Below, piece after piece: positions 4,236-52,217 of a stretch of DNA of 64,000 nt. Within the stretch, counting starts at the first letter, position 1. Each line of letters begins with the position of its first letter. The stretch is from Eubacteriales bacterium (GTDB lineage Bacteria > Bacillota > Clostridia > Oscillospirales > CAG-272). The position numbers and the translations under genes are program-made. The notes beneath the pieces are model-generated. The model searched no databases, had not been told where the DNA came from, and was given only the letters and a program-made list of their open reading frames with translations. The stretch is from NCBI GenBank assembly GCA_045542275.1, contig JAZQKP010000014.1, positions 524 to 64,523 on the forward strand, given 5' to 3'.

Positions 4236-4742
4236 ATGGAAAAATATTTGGAATGTGGTGCTATAACCAGAATACATGGCTTAGCAGGAGCCTTGGTTGT
4301 AAACCATTATTGCGATTCATATGAGGTATTTGCTCAGCTTAAAAATGTATACATTAAATCCTCTACAGGATATGAAAAGAAAAAGGTTAAAAAGATTTCA
4401 CCCTACAAGGTGGGCGCTTTGCTCATGCTTGATGGAGTAACTGATGCCGATGAGGCTATGAAATACCGTGGAAAAACCTTATATGCTGATAGAGATGATC
4501 TTAAGAAAGACGAAGATTCATTCTTTATTGTTGATCTTATAGGCCTACCCGTATGCGATTACAATACAAAGGAAAAATACGGTGTGCTTGGTGAGGTGGC
4601 AAACTACGGTGCGCAAGACGTTTATGTGATCAAGCGCGATGGAAAGACTGATGCGTACATCCCTGCTATACCCGAATTTGTGAAGAGCATTTCACTTGAG
4701 GAAGGAATTTTTATAACACCTATTGAGGGAATGATAGAATGA
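4236..4742 (+). CDS. rimM: 16S rRNA processing protein RimM
   Basis: N-terminal RimM-type beta-barrel motif ([15 protein letters not shown]) and a PRC-like C-terminus. ATGA overlap with trmD. Confidence 0.85.
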
Positions 4743-5479
4743 GATTTGATATTTTAACTCTTTTTCCTGAACAGATAAATGCTGTACTTGGTGAAAGCAT
4801 TATGGGTAGAGCTCAAAAAAATGGGCTGATTTCCGTTAATGCACACAACATCAGGGACTATACATCAAACAAGCACAGAAAGGTGGACGATACACCGTAC
4901 GGAGGCGGTAAGGGCATGCTGATGGCTACACAGCCCATATACGATTGCTACTTGTCTGTCAAGTCTTCTCTACCTGAAGGAAAAACAAGAACTGTCTATA
5001 TGTCACCCAGAGGACGAATTTTCAATCATAATATTGCAAAGGAGCTTTCACAATACGATAATCTTATAATTCTTTGCGGTCACTATGAGGGTGTCGACCA
5101 AAGAGTTCTGGATGAAGTAATTGATGAGGAAATCTCTATAGGTGATTACGTTCTGACAGGCGGTGAGCTACCTGCATGTATACTTGTAGATGCTGTATCA
5201 AGACTTCTTGACGGAGTTTTAGCTGATGAAATATGCCATGAGGATGAAAGCATAGCATCAGGCCTTCTGGAATATCCTCAGTATACAAGACCTCCGATTT
5301 TCAACGGTAAGGAGGTTCCCGAGGTGCTTCTTAGCGGTCACCATGGAAACATAGATAAATGGAGACTTGAAAAATCTCTTGAATTAACAAAGGAGCGTCG
5401 ACCGGATTTATATGAAAAATATATGATCGAGCACCCTCCTGTTGAAAAGAAAAAACGCAAAAGCAAATCTACGCAGTAA
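4739..5479 (+). CDS. trmD: tRNA (guanine37-N1)-methyltransferase TrmD
   Basis: [11 protein letters not shown] start, YGGGKGM motif and [27 protein letters not shown] motif. Confidence 0.93.
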
Positions 5480-9310: not shown

Positions 9311-10147
9311 ATGAAATTAAATATTGGCTGCCACCTCTCTGTTTCGGGAGGATATGAAAAAATGGGCAAAGCTGCCCTTTCCGTTGGCGCAAACACCTTT
9401 CAGTTTTTCACAAGAAATCCCCGTGGCGGATCATTTAAAATGCCTACCGATGAGGATATTGCAGGTCTTAACAAAATAATGGCAGAAAACAATTTCTGTC
9501 CCATTATTGCCCATGCGCCTTATACAATGAATCCCTGCGGTGCTGACGAGGAGCTTCGTAACTACACCAAGGATACTATGGCACAGGATATTAAGCTGCT
9601 TGAAAAAATAAACAGCGCATATTACAATTTTCATCCGGGCTCTCACGTTTCTCAGGGTGTAGAGGTTGGTATTGAAAAAACTGCCGACACCGTTAATCAC
9701 ATCTCACAGTTTGCCGAAAAAACCTTTATTCTTATCGAAACTATGGCAGGAAAAGGCTCGGAAATCGGCAAAACCTTTGAGGAAATCAGGGAAATAATCG
9801 ACAGATGCGAAAAAAAGTCTATTGTTGGCGTATGCCTTGACACCTGTCATGTACATGACGGTGGCTATGATATCGGCGCTGACCCTGACAAGGTGCTTAC
9901 AGAATTTGACAAGGTTGTCGGCCTTAATTATCTTAAGGCTATCCACTTAAATGACAGTAAAAATCCTTTAAGCGCACACAAGGACCGTCACGAAAAGATT
10001 GGCGACGGATTCCTTGGAATTGAAGCAATTACAAGAATTATTACTCATCCTGTTATCGCTTCTCTTCCTATCTGCCTTGAAACTCCTAACGAGCTTGAGG
10101 GCTATGCACGTGAGATTGCATTACTTAAAGAAATATTTTACAAGTAA
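9311..10147 (+). CDS. nfo: deoxyribonuclease IV (endonuclease IV)
   Basis: AP endonuclease family 2 TIM-barrel motifs (IAHAPYTMN, HPGSH, CLDTCH, HLNDSK). Confidence 0.88.
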   Translation: MKLNIGCHLSVSGGYEKMGKAALSVGANTFQFFTRNPRGGSFKMPTDEDIAGLNKIMAENNFCPIIAHAPYTMNPCGADEELRNYTKDTMAQDIKLLEKINSAYYNFHPGSHVSQGVEVGIEKTADTVNHISQFAEKTFILIETMAGKGSEIGKTFEEIREIIDRCEKKSIVGVCLDTCHVHDGGYDIGADPDKVLTEFDKVVGLNYLKAIHLNDSKNPLSAHKDRHEKIGDGFLGIEAITRIITHPVIASLPICLETPNELEGYAREIALLKEIFYK

Positions 10148-10158
10148 AAAGAGTGCCT

Positions 10159-10364
10159 TGTGGCGCCTGCCGTAGAGCAGGTGCCACAGTTATATTCGCC
10201 TGCAGCGAGTTATATTGCTTCGCAGTTATATTCGTCTTACGACGAGTGATATTCGCTATGCGAGTTTTATGGCGAATAAAATATCACTAAAGCCTTTAGG
10301 CTTTAATATCACTATTGCGGTAGCAATAATATCACTCCGACGAAGTCGGAATATAACTCTTGCG
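10159..10364 (+). repeat. structured word-plus-hairpin palindromic array (element A)
   Basis: Leading hairpin at 10159-10188. GTTATATT at 10189, 10209 and 10225; GTGATATT at 10246. Reverse-complement words AATATCAC at 10280, 10305 and 10328; AATATAAC at 10350. Each word is separated by a distinct 3-6 bp-stem mini-hairpin. Confidence 0.8.
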
Positions 10365-10497
10365 TTCTCTATCGTTTTATGGTTTATAAGAAAGGTGCGA
10401 AAACAATCTGCTTCTAAAACAACGGAACAAAAATTATTATATTTAATGAAAGACCATTTGGGATGCCAACCGATAATAAATGAAAAAACATAATAAT

Positions 10498-10532
10498 AAA
10501 AGCCGACAGATTCTTAAAATCCGTCGGCTTTT
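10498..10532. terminator. bidirectional intrinsic terminator (nfo/element A side and metG side)
   Basis: AAAAGCCGAC...GTCGGCTTTT hairpin with an A-run and a T-run on the two flanks. Confidence 0.75.
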
Positions 10533-10569
10533 ATCACCCTTATGAGAACCAACCTTTCGGCACTCTTTT

Positions 10570-12156
10570 TTATTTTTCTATTCTTGAAAATAAAATTCCA
10601 AAATCTTTGGGCAAGCTTTCCGCCTTGTAGTTTTGCGCTCTCCAATCCTTAGATAGTCCAAGCCAGCGAATAACCTTTTCAGATGAAAACGGAAGAAATG
10701 GCTGCAATAAAATTGCTAAATTGCCAATCAGATATGTGCAATTATAAATTGTATCCTTACATTTTTCTATATCGTTGCTTCTTGTTTTCCAAGGCTCACA
10801 AGAATCATAATACTTATTTCCATAGCGAACAAGGTCAAAAATACTTTCTAGAGCATCCTTAAAATTGCCCTTTTCTATTTTCTTGCCAATATTATCGTAA
10901 TAATAATCAACCTTTTCTTTAATTTCATCATTTGGTGTAATGCTTTCAAAACTGTTGTTTAAATACTTTATAGCAAAAGCAAGGGTGCGGTTTACCAAAT
11001 TACCCCAAGCGCCAACCAATTCTGAATTATTTTGCTCTATAAATTCTCTGTTTGAGAAATCAGTATCGCGTTTTTCGGGACCGTTTACTATAAAGAAATA
11101 TCTTATTGCATCGGGGTTATATTCATTCGCGAGGTCTTTTGCTAAGATTGACCAGTTTTCACTTTTAGAAATTTTTCTACCCTCCAATGTTAAATGCTCG
11201 CTTGAAATAATTTCATCAGGAAGCCTTAAACCTTCGCCATGAGCGAGTAACAATGCAGGCAAAATAATAGTGTGGAATGGGATATTGTCCTTACCGTGAA
11301 CGTAATAGTGTCTTGCATTTTCGCCATATACCTCTGTGAAAGGTATATTTCTCTCCTCACAAAGTCTTGCAGTTGCAGAAAGATAACCAAGCACATTTTC
11401 CGCCCAAATGTAAATTTTCTTACTTTCGTAATTATCCTTTGGCACATCAATTCCCCAATCCAAATCACGGGTAATAGCCCTGTCGCGAAGTCCTTCGTTT
11501 ATATATTTTCTTGTAAATGATATAGCATTTTTTCTCCAATTATAATGGCTTTCCAACAATTCGTTAAGTTCATTTTCAAGCTTGGATATCAGAAGAAAAA
11601 TCTGTTTTGTTTCTCCAAATAAAAGCTCTGTTTCACATTCAGAGCATTTCGCTTCCAAAACGGACTCAGCATCAAGAACCGCACCGCAATATCCACATTG
11701 ATCAGCTTGTGTTTTCTTACCACAATATGGGCAAATTCCAACTACAAGTCTATCTGTCAAAACCTTTTGACAGGTTGGACAAAACGCCTGTTTTACCGTT
11801 CTTTCCTCAATATAATTACCTTCATACAGCTTTCTATGAAAATCCCTTACAAATTCTTTGTGGTAATTATCAGTTGTTTTGCTATACAAATCATAAGAAA
11901 ATCCCAACTTTTTAAATACCTCACAAAATTCGTTGTGGTATTTGTCGGAAATTTCAAGAGGAGACACGCACTCCTGCTTTGCTCTAATGGTTATAGGTGT
12001 TCCGTGGCAATCGCTACCAGAAACGTAAAATACATTTTCTCCCTTTGCTCTGTAATAACGGGCTACAATATCTCCGGGAAGAAGCGCCGATAAATGCCCA
12101 ATATGGAGCGATCCGTTTGCATACGGCCACGCTCCGCCGATTACAATATTTGTCAT
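10570..12156 (-). CDS. metG: methionyl-tRNA synthetase
   Basis: Class I HIGH motif (SLHIGHL), KMSKS variant (KISKS), and CxxC zinc knuckles in the CP domain. Preceded by a T-box leader. Confidence 0.93.
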   Translation of the reverse strand: MTNIVIGGAWPYANGSLHIGHLSALLPGDIVARYYRAKGENVFYVSGSDCHGTPITIRAKQECVSPLEISDKYHNEFCEVFKKLGFSYDLYSKTTDNYHKEFVRDFHRKLYEGNYIEERTVKQAFCPTCQKVLTDRLVVGICPYCGKKTQADQCGYCGAVLDAESVLEAKCSECETELLFGETKQIFLLISKLENELNELLESHYNWRKNAISFTRKYINEGLRDRAITRDLDWGIDVPKDNYESKKIYIWAENVLGYLSATARLCEERNIPFTEVYGENARHYYVHGKDNIPFHTIILPALLLAHGEGLRLPDEIISSEHLTLEGRKISKSENWSILAKDLANEYNPDAIRYFFIVNGPEKRDTDFSNREFIEQNNSELVGAWGNLVNRTLAFAIKYLNNSFESITPNDEIKEKVDYYYDNIGKKIEKGNFKDALESIFDLVRYGNKYYDSCEPWKTRSNDIEKCKDTIYNCTYLIGNLAILLQPFLPFSSEKVIRWLGLSKDWRAQNYKAESLPKDFGILFSRIEK

Positions 12157-12204
12157 AATAAAAACCTCATTTCTAATTTAGTTTAGTAACACTTTTTCTT
12201 GTTA

Positions 12205-12508
12205 AGAAATAAAAAAACACTCTCACCCCCTGACTAATCAAAAGGGACGAGAGCATAACTCACGTGTTACCACCCTATTTCACCTACCCCTCGCGGCAGT
12301 AGGCCTTATCAAGTTCGGATAGGAAATGATCTATCGAAACTTTATCGCTATCACGGGCGAACCCGATGCAGCCTAATCATTTTGACTCGGTGCATAGCTC
12401 AGAGACCATGTTCGGCAAGGTTGTCTTTATCCATTCTCAGCGCATCTATAAGATGATGGATTTCTCTGTAAAAGCCTAATTTGCTTACTCTTTCTCGTCA
12501 TTGCTGTT
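12205..12508 (-). promoter_or_regulatory. T-box leader (riboswitch) controlling metG
   Basis: On the minus strand: AAATAGGGTGGTAACACGTG T-box core (about 12262-12281), AGAGA and GCUGAGA stem I elements, and a terminator hairpin plus U-run at 12211-12256. Candidate AUG specifier at 12407-12409 (GAAC-AUG-G). Confidence 0.85.
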
Positions 12509-12514
12509 GCAATT

Positions 12515-12543
12515 ATATTATCACATTTGTTTTAATTTGTCAA
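12515..12543 (-). promoter_or_regulatory. sigma-A promoter of the metG T-box leader
   Basis: On the minus strand: TTGACA, 17-nt spacer, TAATAT. Confidence 0.6.
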
Positions 12544-12570
12544 TAAGAAATAAAAAATTACTTTAAAAGT

Positions 12571-12597
12571 AAAAACGCAGCAATAAAGCTGCGTTTT
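12571..12597 (-). terminator. intrinsic terminator after cls
   Basis: AAAAACGCAGC-loop-GCTGCGTTTTT, directly after the cls stop codon. Confidence 0.75.
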
Positions 12598-12598
12598 T

Positions 12599-14161
12599 CT
12601 AAAGTAGTGGTGCGAAGATGCGTACAAGAGAACGGACAAGACGGGCGAAAATATTAGTTTTCAGGTCTTCCTTTTTTATTTCCTCACTCTTTTCAAGAGT
12701 TTCGGAGATATCCCTGTAAATATCCTCTATACAATCTGCATTATAGAGCCACACACCGTTTTCAAAATGGTGAACAAGGCTTCTGTAATCCAGATTAATT
12801 GTGCTTACCATTGCGTATTTACCGTCGGACACTACAGTTTTTGCGTGGATAAAGCCGGTGGTATACTCATATATCTTAACACCTGCATTTATAAGGCGAG
12901 AATAAAAGCTGCGTGTCATACTGAAAACAAGCTTTTTGTCAGGTATGTGAGGTGTGATAATACGCACGTCAACACCCTTTATTGCTGTATTTTCAATAGC
13001 TGTGCAAAGCTCATTGTCGATTATGAGATATGGTGTTGTAATATACACATATTCTGTGGCAGATGCAAGGATATTCTGAATTGCGCTTTTACCTACACGT
13101 CTGTCATACAAGGGCCTTGGACCGTCACCGAAGGGGATAACATAACCATTTGCTTCAACCTTATGTGCCGGATAAATATCCTTATGGGGAGATTTCAGCT
13201 CCTTGAAATTAATACCGAAATCGGTTAAAAACAGCTCGGTAAGTCCACATACAGCCTCACCCTCAAGACGTATTCCGACATCCTTCCAATGACCGAATTT
13301 TACTATTTCATTTATATATTCGTCCGCAATATTTACTCCACCTGTATAGCCGATATAGCCGTCAATAACCATTATTTTTCTGTGGCTGCGATTATTGAAC
13401 TCGCTATCTGCCTGTCCCTTTAGACGTGAAAACGGCGTTGCCAGAATTCCACAGTCTGCAAGGATTTTTGCGTAGTTACCCGGTAAGGTATTCATACACC
13501 CTACATCGTCGTAAAGTACACGTACGTCTATGCCCTTTTGAGCCTTTTTCTTAAGAATTTCAAGAATAGAATCCCAGAATTTACCCTCTTCAATTATGAA
13601 ATACTCAAGATAGATAAACCTTTCTGCCTTTTCAAGGTCCGAAAGCATGCTTTCGTGCATCATTTCACCTGAAGGAAAATATCTTTGAGAGGTGCTTTTA
13701 TAAAGGTGTGAGCCTGAAATATCGCAAAGCATTTTTGCTTGATTAAACGACACAGGGTCGGATTTTTTAAGCTCTGCCATTATTTCTGTATCATCTCTTT
13801 CCTGCTTATACTCCTTAAGGTCATTTAGGCGCTTGATATACTTTTTTTGTAGCTTTCTTGAATAGAAGATAAGATACAGCATAAAGCCTGCTATGGGCAG
13901 AATCAATACAAATAAAAGCCATGGAATTTTATAGTCCGGATTATCGTTAGATGCTATAATTTTAATTACGCATACAATTTCTGTTACCCAACACAAAAGA
14001 TAAAAGTAAGGGACAAAATAACAGAGTGCTACCACTACACCGATTATAGATATTATTTCAAAAACCGTTATAAGCATAGCAAAAATATATCGTACGGGAA
14101 TATAGCTGACCTCTCGCTCTATTTCCTTATTACCCGCCTTATATTTATATGTTCTTTTCAT
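12599..14161 (-). CDS. cls: cardiolipin synthase
   Basis: Two N-terminal TMs and two PLD HKD motifs (HRKIMVIDG; HAKTVVSDG). Start set at ATG 14161, preceded by GGAG. Confidence 0.9.
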   Translation of the reverse strand: MKRTYKYKAGNKEIEREVSYIPVRYIFAMLITVFEIISIIGVVVALCYFVPYFYLLCWVTEIVCVIKIIASNDNPDYKIPWLLFVLILPIAGFMLYLIFYSRKLQKKYIKRLNDLKEYKQERDDTEIMAELKKSDPVSFNQAKMLCDISGSHLYKSTSQRYFPSGEMMHESMLSDLEKAERFIYLEYFIIEEGKFWDSILEILKKKAQKGIDVRVLYDDVGCMNTLPGNYAKILADCGILATPFSRLKGQADSEFNNRSHRKIMVIDGYIGYTGGVNIADEYINEIVKFGHWKDVGIRLEGEAVCGLTELFLTDFGINFKELKSPHKDIYPAHKVEANGYVIPFGDGPRPLYDRRVGKSAIQNILASATEYVYITTPYLIIDNELCTAIENTAIKGVDVRIITPHIPDKKLVFSMTRSFYSRLINAGVKIYEYTTGFIHAKTVVSDGKYAMVSTINLDYRSLVHHFENGVWLYNADCIEDIYRDISETLEKSEEIKKEDLKTNIFARLVRSLVRIFAPLL

Positions 14162-14210
14162 AATTGCTCCTTTAAAGGGAAATAGAGGCACACCTGTGCC
14201 TCTTTTTTAA

Positions 14211-14474
14211 TTATTCCTTGTTAGCCTTTGTGGACTTAGCAAATTCGATGCGCTCGTTAGCTGCTGCTGTTCTTTCCTTAGCTGCTGCAATCTGCTCATC
14301 TCTTTCCTTCTGCATAAGCTGCTGTCTGCCTGAGGGAGACATCTTAGCCTCTTCCCATGTTGCCTTAGCCTCTGCCTTTGCAGCCTGGAAGTTTGCCTTA
14401 TCAACCTCGTGCTGTGCCTTTGTGCTTGCCTTCATATCACCGAATGCCTTTTTGAAAAAGCTCTTGATTCCCAT
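14211..14474 (-). CDS. small K/A/E-rich hypothetical protein with an amphipathic N-terminus
   Basis: 87-aa ORF with RBS AAGGAGAA. N-terminal GIKSFFKKAFGDMK followed by predicted helical low-complexity sequence. No family recognised. Confidence 0.55.
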   Translation of the reverse strand: MGIKSFFKKAFGDMKASTKAQHEVDKANFQAAKAEAKATWEEAKMSPSGRQQLMQKERDEQIAAAKERTAAANERIEFAKSTKANKE

Positions 14475-14505
14475 TGTCTTGTTCTCCTTTTGTTATTGTT
14501 ATATT

Positions 14506-14847
14506 TTAATTGTTAAGAACGCTGTCTGAAAGCTCAAGTACCTTTTCGGAATACTTCTTTTTTCTCTTTGCAAGAAGCTTATCATGCATAGGCTTTGCAG
14601 CTGATACCATTGCGATGCCTGCGCAACCGATTGCAACTCCTGCACCTACCATTGTGCCGATTACTCCCATGGCAAGGCACATACCTGTACCTAATACAAG
14701 TGAGCCTGCTGCACCGAATGCGTACGAAAATGCCTTCACAGGACGCTTAATCTGCTTATCAAGTGTTTTTAACTTGTCAAGCTCTGTTTCTTCCTTTTCT
14801 ACATACTGCTGACGAATCTTTTCAGCTGTCTTCATTTCATTTGTCAT
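14506..14847 (-). CDS. small 2-TM membrane protein (paralog of 15021-15410)
   Basis: N-terminal charged helix, Gly/Ala-rich TM hairpin, and a C-terminal KRKKKYSEKVLELSDSVL tail shared with the paralog. GGAGG RBS. Confidence 0.7.
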   Translation of the reverse strand: MTNEMKTAEKIRQQYVEKEETELDKLKTLDKQIKRPVKAFSYAFGAAGSLVLGTGMCLAMGVIGTMVGAGVAIGCAGIAMVSAAKPMHDKLLAKRKKKYSEKVLELSDSVLNN

Positions 14848-14890
14848 TATGTTTTCCTCCGTATTTGTTCTTGTTTCTGTTTACGTTCCT

Positions 14891-14919
14891 ATTATACGGC
14901 AGCCATGTTTGTATTTTAA
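14891..14919 (-). promoter_or_regulatory. candidate activator-dependent promoter of 14506-14847
   Basis: On the minus strand: TATAAT at 14891-14896 and a weak -35 TTAAAA with a 17-nt spacer. Confidence 0.45.
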
Positions 14920-14923
14920 TAAA

Positions 14924-14967
14924 ATACCGTAAATGAATTGAAAAAGAAATGTAAAAGAAATGTAAAA
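14924..14967 (-). promoter_or_regulatory. four phased 11-bp direct repeats (candidate OmpR-family response-regulator binding array)
   Basis: On the minus strand: TTTTACATTTC / TTTTACATTTC / TTTTTCAATTC / ATTTACGGTAT. The array ends 4 nt upstream of the -35. Confidence 0.55.
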
Positions 14968-14980
14968 GCCGACTTTTTTA

Positions 14981-15013
14981 GAAAAAATAAAAAAGAGGGT
15001 GAATTTCACCCTC
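14981..15013 (-). terminator. intrinsic terminator after 15021-15410
   Basis: On the minus strand: GAGGGTG-aaatt-CACCCTC followed by TTTTTTATTTTTT. Confidence 0.75.
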
Positions 15014-15020
15014 CATTATT

Positions 15021-15410
15021 TTATTCATTTTCTTCCTTAAGAAGCTCATCGGAAAGACGGAGTATCTCCTCTCCGTATTTTTCTTTATTGCGCTTCATTG
15101 TAAGAAGGTATACAGGATACGCACTACCCATTGGAACTGCGCCTGCTATAGAAACTATGATACCGAACACCATAATGTCCCACACAAGTATCATTGCCAT
15201 ACCAAGGCCGAAAATAAGGGCGCCCATAACTCCTATAACCAAGGAAAGAATCATTGAAAAGTTCTGCACAAAGCTATCAAGCCTTCTGATTCTTTCAAGC
15301 TTTATTTCCTTTTCGGACTTACCCCCGTATTGCTTTCTTATGCTTTCTATCTCTCTGCGCTCTGCCTCTGTCGGCGCAACATAAGTATATTCAAATCCTT
15401 TATTATCCAT
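15021..15410 (-). CDS. small 2-TM membrane protein (paralog of 14506-14847)
   Basis: Same architecture as the paralog: IRKQY helix, TM hairpin, and C-terminal KRNKEKYGEEILRLSDELL. GGAGAA RBS. 8-nt overlap with the upstream gene. Confidence 0.7.
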   Translation of the reverse strand: MDNKGFEYTYVAPTEAERREIESIRKQYGGKSEKEIKLERIRRLDSFVQNFSMILSLVIGVMGALIFGLGMAMILVWDIMVFGIIVSIAGAVPMGSAYPVYLLTMKRNKEKYGEEILRLSDELLKEENE

Positions 15411-16302
15411 TATTATTCTCCGATTTAATTTTATTAATTGTTTTTACACCCTTTACTATCATATAGATAGCAACGCTGTATGCGCATATACTTACTGCGC
15501 TTCCTGTAAGAGTATTTGCCAAGGATATATCCATTGCTCCGTCCGAAAAGGTATACAGCATAGCTGTCTGCAATGCCAGAATTGACACTGCACCGTCTAT
15601 CAGGTTTATATTTCTTGCCGATTCGATTACAAGGTCATTTTGCTTTTGCGCCTTGACAAAATTGTATATTGACATACCTATTTTAATAAAAGCATATAAT
15701 GCGGAAACATATATCATATAATCTCCGTATTCAAAGCCTCTTTCATCAAAAATCATTTGAGCAATTGACACGGATAAGGCAATATTAAGAAGCAGCATTC
15801 CTATTCCACTAACAAGATATGTCTTTACACGTCTTAAGCTGTCACCCTCGCCCCTGCTTTTTCTGTGATTAACCAAAACAGCTGAACGAATAAGGGTAAG
15901 CAGCAAATAATATGCAGCCAAGGATCCGAACCAGACAGAACCGTTTACTATGCCGATTATACCGTTATATATGCCGTAGGCTACGCTTACGGTCAATGAA
16001 ACGGCTAAGCCTATAATTGTTCGGTAGCCAAAGCTTTCAAGCAGCTCTGCCGTAACAGAATTGCTTCTTAGCATTTTAATAATTTTTGATTTTATTTTTG
16101 GAGCAAAAATTACAATTGTATATATGCTATATCCAAAGGCCACAGCCGTCAAGCCATACAAAACGTAGGTTATGATTTCCATAGCTCCGTCAAACGATTT
16201 AAGCATCAAAACCATAGACGCCACTACAAGCAAGGCTGTTACAGGATATATAATTGCAATAATTATTTTATTTGGTTGCTTTAATAAGTTAAATATCTTC
16301 AT
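15403..16302 (-). CDS. polytopic membrane protein (about 8 TM), unknown family
   Basis: 299-aa hydrophobic ORF that overlaps the kinase stop by 14 nt, suggesting translational coupling. No motif recognised. Confidence 0.65.
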   Translation of the reverse strand: MKIFNLLKQPNKIIIAIIYPVTALLVVASMVLMLKSFDGAMEIITYVLYGLTAVAFGYSIYTIVIFAPKIKSKIIKMLRSNSVTAELLESFGYRTIIGLAVSLTVSVAYGIYNGIIGIVNGSVWFGSLAAYYLLLTLIRSAVLVNHRKSRGEGDSLRRVKTYLVSGIGMLLLNIALSVSIAQMIFDERGFEYGDYMIYVSALYAFIKIGMSIYNFVKAQKQNDLVIESARNINLIDGAVSILALQTAMLYTFSDGAMDISLANTLTGSAVSICAYSVAIYMIVKGVKTINKIKSENNNG

Positions 16303-17341
16303 TTACATATTTTAATGTTATGGTAAAGGTGCTTCCCTTACCGATTTCACTCTTAACGGAGATTTCACCGCCAAGAATATCTATTACTTTTTTTACAAGG
16401 GGTAAGCCAAGTCCGTTGCCCTCTCCCGAATGTGATGTATCTCCCTGGTAGAACTTATCAAAGATATGCTCACCGGTTTCCTTTGAAATACCACAGCCTG
16501 TATCGGACACAGACACCACTACTCTGTCAAGATACTCCTTAAGAGTAACAGTTACGCTTCCTCCCGGCTCTGTAAACTTAATGGCGTTGGAAATAAGGTT
16601 ATTCCACACTATTTCAAGGTAGCTTGGTGAGGAATATATGATTACATCGTCAAGATCGCAATCAAGATTAAGACCCTTTTTGTCAATTAAATCCTCAAAA
16701 TTCAGTACGGTTTCCGCAAGCATTTCCGTAAGGTTTATTTTTTCATACTCTGTGCTTATTTCCTGATTCTCCAGCTTATTAAGCTTGAGAATATTTGTAA
16801 TAAGGTCGGTTAAGCGACGTGATGCCTGATTTAAAATGGAAACATATTTCTGTCTTGTTTCACTATCAAGGGATTCGTCCTTTAAAAGTGTACTGTAATT
16901 CTGGATTATAGCAAGAGGTGTCTTAAGCTCGTGAGAAACGTTTGATATGAAATCTGTTTTCAACACTGCACTTTTCTCAAGCTCGGTTGCCATCTTATTA
17001 AGGTCCTCCATAATGGCATCGTAGCCATTATACTGAGAATACTTATGGTCAGGGGTAATTCTTACAGAAAAATCCCCTGTGGTTATTTTTTCTGTTGCAT
17101 CAAGTATCTTTTTAACAGGCTTATCTACCATTATTTTACGTCTTATATAGTCTGCTATAGTGCATACAGTTGACAAAATCAAAATAAGAATAAGCACAAG
17201 CACAGCTATAAGTCCCTTGTTTGACGTTCTGTCCTCTATATAGTCAAAAACCAAAATGGCTATCTGCATTATAATTGCAATAAGAGCAAAAAATGCTATA
17301 GCTCCCGACAACGAAAAGGTGCTGCGATTTCTTTTTTTCAC
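16289..17341 (-). CDS. sensor histidine kinase, intramembrane-sensing type
   Basis: Two TMs joined by an approximately 11-aa loop (DYIEDRTSNKG), H-box SHELKTPL, and HATPase N/G boxes (NLISNAIKFT; DTGCGI; GNGLGL). Confidence 0.88.
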   Translation of the reverse strand: MKKRNRSTFSLSGAIAFFALIAIIMQIAILVFDYIEDRTSNKGLIAVLVLILILILSTVCTIADYIRRKIMVDKPVKKILDATEKITTGDFSVRITPDHKYSQYNGYDAIMEDLNKMATELEKSAVLKTDFISNVSHELKTPLAIIQNYSTLLKDESLDSETRQKYVSILNQASRRLTDLITNILKLNKLENQEISTEYEKINLTEMLAETVLNFEDLIDKKGLNLDCDLDDVIIYSSPSYLEIVWNNLISNAIKFTEPGGSVTVTLKEYLDRVVVSVSDTGCGISKETGEHIFDKFYQGDTSHSGEGNGLGLPLVKKVIDILGGEISVKSEIGKGSTFTITLKYVNEDI

Positions 17342-18009
17342 TTCAACACCGCCTTATAGCCAAGACCGTGAACCGTAAGTATTTCAAAGCCGTCACAGCC
17401 CGATGTCTTTTCTCTTATCTTTGCCATATACACGTCTACTGTTCTTGATGTAGCTGAGGAATCGTAATCCCAGAATTCCTCCATAAGAGCAGAACGGGTA
17501 AATGTCTTTTTAGGATAAGAAAGAAGCTTAAAAAGGATATCAAACTCACGTACAGTAAGAGGAATCTCCTCACCGTCAGCTGAGGCTGTATGCTCCTCTG
17601 TGTTCATTGTAAAATTGCCTATCTTAATCTGCTTCTCTGTTTCAATCTTTGCTCTGCGCAAAATTGCATTTATCTTAAGAAGAAGCACATCCATATCAAA
17701 GGGTTTGGTTACGTAATCGTCAATACCGATGGAATAGCTGAACATCGTAGAGGGCTTATCGTCCTTTGCAGTCATAAAGATAATAGGAATATCCTTATCA
17801 AAGCTACGGATGTTTTTTGTAAGCTCATAGCCGTCCATTTTAGGCATCATAATATCTGTAAGCACTAAATCGTACTTTACCCTCTCGGTCATATCAAGGG
17901 CTTGTTCTCCGTCAAAGCAAGAGGTTATTTCATATCCGTTATTTTTTAAAGATGAGGAAACAAAGCGATTAAGATCCTTATCATCCTCTACTATAAGTAT
18001 TTTAATCAT
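17338..18009 (-). CDS. OmpR-family response regulator
   Basis: Receiver (ILIVEDD; LVLTDIMMPKMDG; TKPF) plus a winged-helix domain (LTVREFDILFKLL; GLGYK). GGAGGTG RBS. Confidence 0.9.
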   Translation of the reverse strand: MIKILIVEDDKDLNRFVSSSLKNNGYEITSCFDGEQALDMTERVKYDLVLTDIMMPKMDGYELTKNIRSFDKDIPIIFMTAKDDKPSTMFSYSIGIDDYVTKPFDMDVLLLKINAILRRAKIETEKQIKIGNFTMNTEEHTASADGEEIPLTVREFDILFKLLSYPKKTFTRSALMEEFWDYDSSATSRTVDVYMAKIREKTSGCDGFEILTVHGLGYKAVLK

Positions 18010-18035
18010 AGTACACCTCCGTTTTCATCATTTCT

Positions 18036-50311: not shown

Positions 50312-50713
50312 ATGTATACAAGTGCTAAACCCTATTTCTACGGAACAGGTAGAAGAAAATCATCAGTAGCTCGTGTTCGTCTCTATCCCGGTACTGGTGT
50401 TATTACAATCAACGGCAGAGATATCGACGACTACTTTGGTCTCGAAACACTCAAGCTCATCATCAATCAGCCCCTCGACGTTACAAACAACATCGGCAAG
50501 TTCGATATCGTTGCTAACGTAAACGGTGGTGGTATCTCCGGTCAGGCTGGCGCTATCCGTCACGGCATCGCAAGAGCTTTGCTCCTCGCTGATGAAACAT
50601 ACCGTGGTGCTCTTAAGGCTGCTGGACTTCTTACTCGTGACCCCAGAATGAAGGAAAGAAAGAAGTACGGTCTCAAGGCTGCTCGTCGTGCACCTCAGTT
50701 CTCAAAGAGATAA
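50312..50713 (+). CDS. rpsI: 30S ribosomal protein S9
   Basis: [14 protein letters not shown] signature and C-terminal [17 protein letters not shown]. Confidence 0.95.
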
Positions 50714-50733
50714 TTTCGACCTTGGTCGAGTTC

Positions 50734-50767
50734 AAAAAATGCTCTGCTTATGCAGGGCATTTTTTAT
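50734..50767 (+). terminator. intrinsic terminator after rpsI
   Basis: ATGCTCTGC-ttat-GCAGGGCAT followed by TTTTTATT. Confidence 0.75.
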
Positions 50768-50790
50768 TATCTCTTTGAGAACAACTAAAT

Positions 50791-50946
50791 TTGCCCTTAC
50801 AGGCAAGTGAAGTTATTTGTAATAGTGAAGTTCACCTTGTAAGTGAAGTTTCGCCTAACGGCGAAGTAGCAAATTTAACTTCACTTGAACAACAGTTCAA
50901 ACTTCGTTGCGCAGCAACTTCACTTTCGCTTTGGCGAAAACTTCAC
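50791..50946 (+). repeat. structured word-plus-hairpin palindromic array (element B)
   Basis: Leading hairpin at 50791-50806. GTGAAGTT at 50807, 50825 and 50843 (18-nt phase). AACTTCAC at 50877, 50916 and 50939. Degenerate copies at 50861 and 50900. Mini-hairpins lie between the words. Confidence 0.8.
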
Positions 50947-50949
50947 CTC

Positions 50950-50997
50950 TTCTCTGCTGTCCTATTTACTTTTGTTGGAATTTATGGTATAATGCAT
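50950..50997 (+). promoter_or_regulatory. 48-bp promoter module, copy 1
   Basis: TTCTCTGCTGTCCTATTTACTTTTGTTGGAATTTATGGTATAATGCAT: -35 TTTACT, 17-nt spacer, TGgTATAAT. 46/48 identical to 52170-52217. Confidence 0.6.
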
Positions 50998-52166: not shown

Positions 52167-52169
52167 CTT

Positions 52170-52217
52170 TTCTCTGCTGTCCTATTTACTTTTGTTGGAA
52201 TTTATGATATAATACAT
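52170..52217 (+). promoter_or_regulatory. 48-bp promoter module, copy 2
   Basis: Same sequence as 50950-50997 with 2 substitutions; -10 is TGaTATAAT. Confidence 0.6.

Follow-up and report, generated by a model that had tools for sequence, protein, structure and literature searches.

A putative dyad-form copy of the Gut-1 family between rpsI and a 361-aa reading frame in an Eubacteriales genome

Introduction

The described element closest to the locus treated here is Gut-1 (RF01706), a motif that was reported from human-gut metagenomes and, without a function being assigned to it, rated 'RNA: Y' on the basis of covariation (Weinberg et al. 2010, Genome Biol 11:R31; PMC2864571); in the available text of that paper the supplementary note on Gut-1 consists of one sentence. 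Rfam has listed it as 'Gene; sRNA' (small RNA) since 2010, an orphan with no known occurrence outside the human gut, and we found no later literature on it. Its consensus, CAaUGAAAU-hairpin-GUGAAAU-hairpin-GUGAAAU-hairpin-GUGAAAU, is a succession of short hairpins separated by one recurring word. Here we analyse a 64,000-nt stretch of DNA from an Eubacteriales bacterium (assembly GCA_045542275.1, contig JAZQKP010000014.1), called the window in the following and numbered from its first letter, which contains two non-coding arrays of precisely this word-plus-hairpin design: element B (50782–50946), downstream of rpsI, and element A (10158–10359), downstream of nfo. An earlier note, made from the letters of the window alone, had described B and considered the two arrays to be members of an unknown family. 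Our comparisons point instead to divergent copies of Gut-1, in a form of which the published model represents only one arm.

Results

Layout of element B

In element B the word GTGAAGTT stands on the forward strand at 50807, 50825 and 50843 (18 and 18 nt from start to start), and its reverse complement AACTTCAC follows at 50877, 50916 and 50939; there are also two degenerate copies, GCGAAGTA at 50861 and AACTTCGT at 50900. Direct reading and a search agree on this layout, including the phase, the degenerate copies and the hairpins named in the earlier note. The 8-mer, counted as GTGAAGTT or AACTTCAC, occurs eight times in the window, six of them inside the 140 nt of element B, compared with a mean of 2.19 occurrences in shuffled windows (none of 100 shuffles reached eight). 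The true word is 9 nt long, AGTGAAGTT in B and AGTKATATT in A, with AGTKA..TT as the common part. The stems of B are TTGCC/GGCAA (50791–50806), ATT/AAT, CAC/GTG, TCGCC/GGCGA, TTGAAC/GTTCAA, GTTGC/GCAAC and TTTCGC/GCGAAA. All seven spacers thus form a stem of at least 3 bp, and five of the seven one of at least 5 bp; in length-matched random segments of the window the mean was 2.3 of 7 (P ~3e-4), and in shuffled spacers 2.9 of 7 (P ~1e-3). In addition, the left end of B, TAAATTTGC (50786–50794), is perfectly complementary to its centre, GCAAATTTA (50869–50877). Element A, with four copies of GTKATATT followed by four of AATATMAC and with its own complementary left end and centre (TATTCGCC/GGCGAATA), is laid out in the same way, so that A and B do represent one architecture, as had been proposed. 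No element beyond A and B emerged when the window was scanned for exact k-mer clusters, the other clusters being A/T-rich promoters or coding repeats.

Relationship to Gut-1

Scanning the whole window with Rfam at gathering thresholds gave no match. Gut-1 matches appear when E-value thresholds are applied to the short A and B regions: 46.1 bits (E 3.5e-8) for the left arm of A, 38.5 bits for its right arm, 38.0 bits (E 2.7e-6 to 4.8e-6) for the left arm of B and 23.3 bits (E 0.014–0.024) for its right arm, all four below the gathering score of RF01706, which is 50 bits. In both elements the left arm matches on the forward strand and the right arm on the reverse strand (Table 1). The model alignments cover positions 1–77 of 77, with three hairpins and a GUGAAAU-like word in each region, the ends of the word closing the stems. 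The likeness also extends to the general plan. B and Gut-1 both have at least three consecutive short hairpins split by a GUGAAAU-like word, and both come from gut Clostridia or metagenomes. The seed alignment shows a terminator-like hairpin, then CA(G/A) (CAG in the typical case) and a first hairpin UUYGCC..GGCRAG; in B, a 15-bp repeat with a terminator is followed by ACAA and then by TTGCC..GGCAA. What differs is the word, GTGAAGTT in B as against GUGAAAU or GUGAUAUU in Gut-1, and the extent of the description, since the Rfam model and the available 2010 text cover a single arm.

Four contigs that score above the gathering threshold, here cited like all related contigs by L number (L162, 77.5 bits; L171, 65.1; L110, 61.9; L158, 53.4), have the same dyad layout as A and B. 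In these canonical Gut-1 contigs the strong match always falls on the arm beside the preceding terminator-like hairpin, H0, and a weaker opposite-strand match falls on the other arm. A second, inverted arm likewise follows the modelled one in the flanking sequence of the published seeds: GUGAUAUU is followed by AAUAUCAC in seeds BAAZ01000095, -085, -322 and -187, and GUGAAAU by AUUUCAC in seed BAAV01002358. The idea of an unknown family therefore falls, as both arms of A and B match RF01706 (E-values of 5e-6 to 3.5e-8 for the cited matches) and bona fide Gut-1 contigs share the dyad; identification as a known RNA family was one of the outcomes that the earlier note itself had named as refuting. 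On this sequence evidence we take element B to be a divergent, sub-threshold copy of the Gut-1 family in full dyad form, and the real Gut-1 unit to be a polar dyad of which Rfam models one arm.

Hairpin conservation, loops and folding

Across 15 elements, 72 of the 76 word-to-word spacers form hairpins. With each arm read in the Gut-1 sense, their stems contain 409 Watson-Crick, 20 G.T and 2 A.C pairs, where the G.T pairs are not independent observations because all of them come from the constant word ends (ATT...AGT). Homologous hairpins differ by paired substitutions or insertions: TTGCC/GGCAA has become TTGCCC/GGGCAA, CAC/GTG has become CACC/GGTG, and GTTTGC/GCAAAC has become GTTTGG/CCAAAC. 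These counts uphold the claim that the hairpins keep their pairing while their sequence changes and, at the level of sequence comparison, show structural constraint on the hairpins, maintained by compensatory change. The view that B is non-coding and more than a single protein-binding word was equally sustained, and it is not a simple row of double-strand binding sites.

The loops are strongly biased. Among 78 unique hairpins, each arm read in its own sense, 39 loops are of the form T..C (TTC, TGC, TTGC, TTAC, TGAC, TAC) and one is G..A; the bias holds in both arms, and a C-G pair closes 64 of the 78 hairpins. Because both arms show T..C on their own strand, the bias is mirrored: any one strand carries TNC loops in its 5' arm and C(GNA)G or GNNA loops in its 3' arm. 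C(GNA)G triloops typify DNA mini-hairpins of very high stability, and GCAA, GAAA and GUAA are GNRA loops in RNA. The loop bias argues for a functional form that would be single-stranded, be it single-stranded DNA (ssDNA) or RNA. The arms are not equal in strength, the right-arm stems being consistently longer than those of the left arm. For B, the predicted folding energies are −22.8 kcal/mol for the left arm, −16.3 kcal/mol for the right arm and −50.5 kcal/mol for the full element (z = −4.9). Joining cognate arms yields a mean gain of −14.6 kcal/mol, compared with −6.1 ± 3.7 kcal/mol for chimeras of arms with different words.

Word subfamilies and arm matching

Relatives were gathered by searches anchored on the 3' end of rpsI. 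At this locus we found the word (A)ACTATGA first and then GTTATGA / TCATAAC (L002/L003, L088–L092), ATGAATTG / CAATTCAT (L013, L015, L086), ATGAAGC / GCTTCAT (L084) and ATGAAATC / GATTTCAT (L087, L093). Together with GTKATATT, GTGAAAT and GTGAAGTT this makes seven word types in about 25 elements, with the core RTGAW throughout. The Rfam model detects the ATGAAATC and ATGAAGC subfamilies weakly and the GTTATGA and ATGAATTG subfamilies not at all. The word of the right arm is the reverse complement of that of the left arm in every element, in agreement with the earlier proposal that the word differs between elements and matches between arms. The complementarity of left end and centre, too, is kept in every family member examined, e.g. 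TATGATTGCC/GGCAATCATA in L002, TGAATTGCCC/GGGCAATTCA in L013 and ATGAAATCTGCC/GGCAGATTTCAT in L087.

It had been concluded from this co-variation that selection acts on pairing between the arms. The data do not support this step, which gives only part of the picture: the six to eight words inside one element are all identical, which nested pairwise pairing would not need, and both arms, each on its own strand, share the same strand-specific features. For these two reasons the arms are better seen as inverted copies of one subfamily-specific unit, kept uniform by a common partner or by the mode of copying.

Long imperfect palindromes of tandem 7–8-nt words (AATTGAAA, GTTATGA, TGAAAAT) without hairpins between them were observed in L068 (15187–15291), in L338 (~9870–10010) and in seeds BAAY01013587 and BAAZ01023714; they may be hairpin-less relatives or precursors of the dyads.

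Dispersal and polymorphism

Both loci vary within a species. The window and L002/L003 belong to the same species (98.7% identity in both flanks of B), and yet their dyads of about 150 nt have no detectable similarity and use different words. Element A, which lies between nfo and the convergent metG, is missing from the same-species contigs L095 and L096 (99.3% identical flanks); here, as in L097, an intact hairpin AAAAAGAGTGCC-aaac/aaaa-GGCACTCTTTTT lies directly 3' of nfo, whereas in the window the arms of this nfo terminator hairpin are set apart by a 401-nt insertion that starts with A's H0 and dyad. The comparison of strains that had been suggested for the two arrays thus does uncover presence/absence polymorphism. 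In L100, from another species, a GTTATGA-type dyad lies 3' of nfo in the opposite orientation, between the split arms AAATCCCTCGCAGA / TCTGCGAGGGATTT, and the dyad of seed BAAZ01000095 is likewise nested in a split terminator. No target duplication is seen at the L092 and L100 junctions, where the exact element boundaries are not defined.

Near-identical copies also occur at unrelated loci. The L092 dyad at the rpsI locus and the oppositely oriented L100 dyad at the nfo locus are 93.5% identical over 123 nt; this is the sole similarity between the two contigs, and the copies differ by one hairpin-plus-word unit. Four seed copies are near-identical, H0 included, with different upstream flanks, and A is 84% identical over 109 nt to the copy in L225. 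Phage contig L439 (terminase, portal, SU10-like capsid) carries two GTGAAGTT-type dyads, 4 kb apart and mutually inverted, inside its co-directional head-gene operon. Further dyads in IMG/VR contigs lie beside a terminase gene (L110), near an endolysin gene (L171) and near a tRNA cluster (L162). Three-word pattern scans of IMG/VR mostly returned unrelated tandem repeats, with true dyads only in L110, L158/L171, L162, L225 and L439. BLAST of the dyads against cultured-phage and plasmid collections gave a single match, the unannotated faecal phage contig MT835815. Pfam and PHROGs scans of the neighbours of A, B and the dyads in L171, L110 and L439 gave no shared or mobility-related gene. Two of these phage contigs have further features of note: L439 contains a GP20-b RNA match (RF03003, 52.3 bits, above its gathering score) at 4684–4743, upstream of putative scaffold and capsid genes, and in L110 a tandem CGGTAACTTGC (four copies, ~5185–5230) lies directly beside the canonical Gut-1 dyad and upstream of a terminase-like gene.

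In a structural scan of 1.13 Mb of related loci, arrays were found in these elements only, plus two likely false positives (none in shuffles), and the 64 kb of the window hold two copies with different words. The family is therefore sparse and no high-copy repeat of the REP (repetitive extragenic palindrome) kind, at least in the DNA examined. Taken together, the sequence comparisons show a family dispersed in uncultured gut Oscillospiraceae/Clostridia and in phage contigs and polymorphic within species; it is probably a mobile foldback repeat. A non-autonomous mobile element had been offered in the earlier note as one of two alternatives, and it is the one that gained most support, from presence/absence, allelic replacement, copies at unrelated loci and copies in phages; the target-site duplication that might have come with it was not seen at the junctions compared (A, L092 and L100), where the boundaries are inexact.

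Genomic setting and feature coordinates

The window is housekeeping chromosome of a Spo0A-bearing Clostridia bacterium. Ruminant-gut assemblies supply the closest public DNA, and the most similar rpsI loci are those of Clostridia/Oscillospiraceae assemblies of ruminant and other animal guts; an exact-sequence lookup of the nfo protein and of the 361-aa protein of the window found nothing on record. Element B is bounded on one side by rpsI (50312–50713) and its bidirectional terminator and on the other by a strong promoter pointing outward to a 361-aa open reading frame (ORF), which has no Pfam match. Upstream of the array a 15-bp perfect inverted repeat (50700–50714 / 50766–50780) has the last codons of rpsI as its 5' arm. 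In a comparison of this site in the window, L002, L013, L015 and L084–L092, the 3' copy of the rpsI-end repeat is present only where there is a dyad, and in 8 of 12 loci the inverted copy follows the wobble base of a Ser codon (TCA with T, TCC with G, TCG with C). At the nfo locus, H0 of element A followed by AGTTATATT scores as a terminator, and it looks like the terminator for nfo. All coordinates are collected in Table 1.

Table 1. Coordinates of the parts of elements B and A in the window
Feature	Position	Strand	Description
Composite long hairpin ('H0' equivalent) before B array	50700..50780	+	Inverted repeat TCTCAAAGAGATAAT / ATTATCTCTTTGAGA
5' arm of 15-bp repeat	within 50700..50780	+	rpsI last codons and stop
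Hairpin enclosed by 15-bp repeat	50716-50729		TCGACC..GGTCGA
Bidirectional rpsI terminator	50734-50765		Enclosed by 15-bp repeat
B left, H0-proximal arm	50782..50868	+ (= Gut-1 sense)	RF01706 38.0 bits at 50782-50854
Order of parts in B left arm			CAA, degenerate first word, first hairpin TTGCC-cttaca-GGCAA, (A)GTGAAGTT x3, GCGAAGTA x1, mini-hairpins interleaved
B centre	50869..50877	+	GCAAATTTA, complement of left end TAAATTTGC
B right arm	50877..50946	- (= Gut-1 sense)	AACTTCAC x3 and AACTTCGT x1 on +, i.e. GTGAAGTT on -
RF01706 match, B right arm	50824-50909	-	
Hairpins of B right arm			Longer: TTGAAC/GTTCAA, GTTGC/GCAAC, TTTCGC/GCGAAA
Conserved right flank of B	50947..50997	+	Outward sigma-70-type promoter TTTACT, 17 nt, TGgTATAAT
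A H0	10158..10189	+	Long hairpin GTGGCGCCTGC-cgtaga-GCAGGTGCCAC, then AG-TTATATT
A dyad	10187..10359		Left AGTKATATT x4-5 (+), centre GGCGAATAA, right AATATMACT x4 (Gut-1 sense -)
RF01706 match, A left arm	10187-10257	+	
RF01706 match, A right arm	10276-10359	-	
Split arms of ancestral nfo terminator	10146-10157; 10559-10569		AAAAAGAGTGCC and GGCACTCTTTT, by comparison with L095/L096/L097

Several observations at the two loci stand beside these results. The conserved right flank of B recurs at 52167–52217, 3' of the 361-aa ORF; it adjoins the element and is also found without it. The two copies form a 51-nt direct repeat (94% identical) that brackets the ORF and contains the motif GTCCTATTTACTTTT and the promoter with TGgTATAAT; motif and promoter are duplicated in L002/L003, L013 and L025 as well, and the arrangement looks like a cassette or an att-type duplication. 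A hot spot of integration in Oscillospiraceae lies at the 3' end of rpsI (L006, L012, L013 at ~11300–11525, L025 at ~11250–11443, L088, L005/L022), with traces such as duplicated rpsI 3' ends, C-terminal remnants of tyrosine-integrase-like ORFs (...IYVHIFKEYKAKMAESIEHDLL*) and tandem CACGATATT 9-mers beside the duplicated end. In L025 (~10490–10540) and L085 a REP-like three-way structure, GTAGGGG-[GAGACC..GGTCTC]-[GGGCGAAC..GTTCGCCC]-CCTAC, occupies the rpsI locus instead of a Gut-1 dyad, twice so in L025. The contig of L001, an independent assembly of the same species, ends at window position 50719, a few bases past the rpsI stop and before terminator and dyad; the break would be explained by difficulty in assembling across a variable element rich in hairpins. 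On the nfo side, nfo is directly convergent with a gene resembling phospholipase D (PLD)/cardiolipin synthase in L095/L096, L097 and L099, and in this strain an extra metG, a leader of ~430 nt and a new terminator (12572–12598) lie between the two (window 10158–12593). L095/L096 also lack window 12765–18018. The metG leader (12157–12590) was first guessed to be a T-box; the Rfam gathering scan, in which it has no match, did not back this.

Discussion

A proposed foldback repeat lodging at terminators

We favour the reading that element B is a Gut-1-family polar foldback repeat that is non-autonomous, acts as a single strand and lodges at terminators, comparable to REPINs (paired REPs in inverted orientation) and BIMEs (bacterial interspersed mosaic elements), and give this reading as a whole a probability of roughly 50%. 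The full form would be a polar, roughly dyad-symmetric repeat of ~160–210 bp, composed of a terminator-like H0, CA(G/A), three to five units of a 7–9-nt word (core RTGAW) plus a short GC-rich hairpin, a centre complementary to the first word and the 5' half of the first hairpin, and an inverted array of the same word with longer hairpins. Such an element would be a non-autonomous repeat of the REPIN/BIME type or of the foldback type of MITE (miniature inverted-repeat transposable element), acting as ssDNA or as read-through RNA. In the single-stranded state each arm could fold into a hairpin array, and the words of the 5' arm could zip onto those of the 3' arm. It would insert at or inside intrinsic-terminator hairpins at gene 3' ends, where insertions may be tolerated because the element's own hairpins replace the split terminator; and the word, as a subfamily mark, might be uniform because a single partner reads, or pairs with, all the units.

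Several points weigh against this. The single-stranded state of the dyads, as transcript or as ssDNA, is something we infer from their sequence. At the single pair of filled and empty sites, that of A, we see neither a target-site duplication nor a classical terminal inverted repeat; the 401-nt insert holds more than the dyad, and a second insertion (metG) lies alongside. No transposase, HUH/RAYT (REP-associated tyrosine transposase), Y1/HUH or recombinase gene was found among the 20 window ORFs scanned. Copy number per genome may be low, and A and B have different words in one genome, unlike REPs. Horizontal transfer and recombination may account for the near-identical copies at unrelated loci, which stem from different assemblies. 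Finally, H0 and the conserved first hairpin are present on one side only, a polarity for which a simple two-ended transposon has no need.

Alternative explanations

The alternative that survives best, though we regard it as unlikely, is the Rfam view of a genuine structured non-coding RNA. In this case a hairpin-array transcript would act in trans or as an element of a 3' untranslated or intergenic region, e.g. as a stabiliser or processing site; the copies would rank as RNA-gene paralogues, and the role of the dyad would be no more than to supply a terminator or a fold that works in either orientation. The covariation behind the 'RNA: Y' rating (Weinberg et al. 2010; PMC2864571, available text) speaks for an RNA, as does the fact that both phage copies in L439, lying in a co-directional operon, must be transcribed; H0, a bidirectional terminator, could also end a transcript arriving from the far side. 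Pairs compatible with G.U on the sense strand close the hairpins, but all the G.T pairs come from the constant word ends noted above. Furthermore, neither inspection by eye nor a scan gave a promoter at a consistent place on either side, including one for a reverse-strand sRNA ending at the bidirectional terminator, and the chromosomal arrays lie downstream of a terminator. The C(GNA)G triloops of the complementary strand stabilise DNA hairpins more than RNA ones. Presence and absence within a species together with wholesale replacement of the word would be unusual for a functional sRNA gene, and both orientations are tolerated.

A bolder version of the foldback reading, which we consider doubtful, would make the Gut-1 dyads a new class of structure-defined bacterial and phage foldback transposon, with a single-strand-specific enzyme, specificity in the DNA word and terminator loops as targets. 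If specificity lay in the DNA word and not in the protein, subfamilies could change the word in both arms together. In a variant of this idea, units would be added singly with duplication of the word, as happens with the repeats of CRISPR (clustered regularly interspaced short palindromic repeats).

Improbable in our view is an immobile, host-selected punctuation module, set as a bidirectional terminator or insulator between a strongly expressed gene and the gene next to it and changing in situ through slippage and palindrome-templated mutation, the latter of which could homogenise the words and keep the arms complementary without transposition. Such a module would account for the constant position at gene 3' ends beside or within terminators, for the occupation of the same rpsI locus across species whose flanks are only ~73–76% identical to the window, for gain and loss of units as hairpin-plus-word blocks and for the hairpin-less tandem-word palindromes (L068, L338). 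It fails to account for the occurrence, in either orientation, of near-identical dyads at loci that are unrelated, for seeds present in several copies whose flanks differ, for a clean empty site within the same species and for copies in phage structural operons.

Even less can be said for a functionless by-product, debris of palindrome formation or repair at terminator hairpins through fold-back priming and template switching, which we hold to be quite improbable. The inverted rpsI-end copy after the terminator, hairpins nested inside hairpins and the rapid turnover within species would fit; however, the polarity (H0, CA(G/A), TTYGCC..GGCRAA, centre complement, loop bias) is kept from ruminant to human gut and phages, and distant copies are conserved at 84–93% in sequence.

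It is very improbable that the array consists of 4+4 opposed double-stranded sites for an element-specific protein (partition, iteron, transposase-end or integrase arm-type sites): the inverted 4+4 layout with a period of 16–23 bp recalls the multi-site ends of Tn7, Mu and Tn402 or centromere-like arrays, and the hot spot of integration at the rpsI 3' end contains integrase remnants, but word spacing varies (16, 20 and 21 nt in A; 16 and 23 nt in the right arm of B), each spacer is a different compensated palindrome, needless for a double-strand binder, two elements per genome and alleles within a species would demand different proteins, and no candidate gene lies nearby among the 20 window ORFs scanned. 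CRISPR, attC, Chi-like, Ter-like and integrase arm-site readings are ruled out by the variation of the word within one genome and by the hairpin in every spacer; with respect to CRISPR, which requires direct repeats of 23–50 nt, unique non-palindromic spacers and a single orientation, B has words of 8–9 nt, palindromic spacers and two opposed arms, and the sole CRISPR match (CRISPR-DR33, E 9.5) is at chance level.

Implications

Gut-1 thereby becomes, provisionally, one half of a polar dyad, a dispersed element that varies within species and also occurs in phages, and whose subfamilies change the 8-nt word in concert. The available text of the 2010 description is silent on a second inverted arm, on the complement in the centre, on variation of the word, on polymorphism and on copies in phages. 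Measured against Rfam and the 2010 paper, what appears to be new is the second arm and polar dyad, the centre complement, the subfamily word and the subfamilies invisible to the model, as well as insertion polymorphism, allelic replacement, terminator nesting, phage copies and the mirrored loop bias. For annotation this means that the Rfam model overlooks most subfamilies and one arm of each copy. If our reading is true, gut Clostridia, where few such repeats are described, would have a new REPIN/MITE-like repeat class, which would account for assembly breaks and hypervariable intergenic alleles in metagenome-assembled genomes.

Comparison with known repeat systems

With REPs, BIMEs and REPINs the dyads share the extragenic position at gene 3' ends, the polar hairpin-forming units, the inverted pair that folds back when single-stranded, the dispersed copies and the lineage-specific sequence; an extragenic inverted pair of hairpin units at gene 3' ends is indeed what we find. 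They differ in that no GTAG tetranucleotide flanks the units examined, no RAYT gene is present in the 20 window ORFs, each arm has three to five different mini-hairpins rather than one REP, copies within one genome do not share the word, their number seems low and the hosts are Firmicutes rather than Proteobacteria.

Like the modular MITE-like repeats known from Firmicutes and Neisseria, namely the pneumococcal BOX elements (A-Bn-C), RUP and Correia elements, the dyads are small, non-coding and intergenic, have a variable number of internal modules and ends able to pair into a long stem, and can carry or abut promoters and terminators. Their modules, however, are 16–23-nt word-plus-hairpin units as opposed to the 45-nt boxB, their word varies by subfamily, and no terminal inverted repeat or target-site duplication was recognised. 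As regards MITEs in general, insertion polymorphism (L095/L096) and copies at unrelated loci (L092/L100; the seed flanks) are both observed; the dyad arms are inverted word arrays, and no duplication was seen at the A filled/empty pair or at the L092/L100 junctions, with the boundaries inexact.

The ends of IS200/IS605 insertion sequences and of their miniature derivatives, the PATEs (palindrome-associated transposable elements), consist of one hairpin per end on the same strand, whereas the dyads are arrays of mirrored polarity on opposite strands, with no TnpA gene seen and no conserved target tetranucleotide found. What the dyads would have in common with them is the recognition of single-stranded hairpins flanked by short words and a specificity that can be encoded in the DNA and not in the protein, which would allow different words with one enzyme; those elements make no target-site duplication, and none was seen at the dyad junctions compared, where the boundaries are inexact.

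Integron attC sites, finally, lack the periodic internal word of the dyads. The dyads in turn are without R''/L''-L'/R' boxes (GTTRRRY), gene cassettes and integrase, and by inspection their words do not fit R''(RYYYAAC)...R'(GTTRRRY). What the two have in common is that the family is defined by a folded single-strand architecture and not by sequence.

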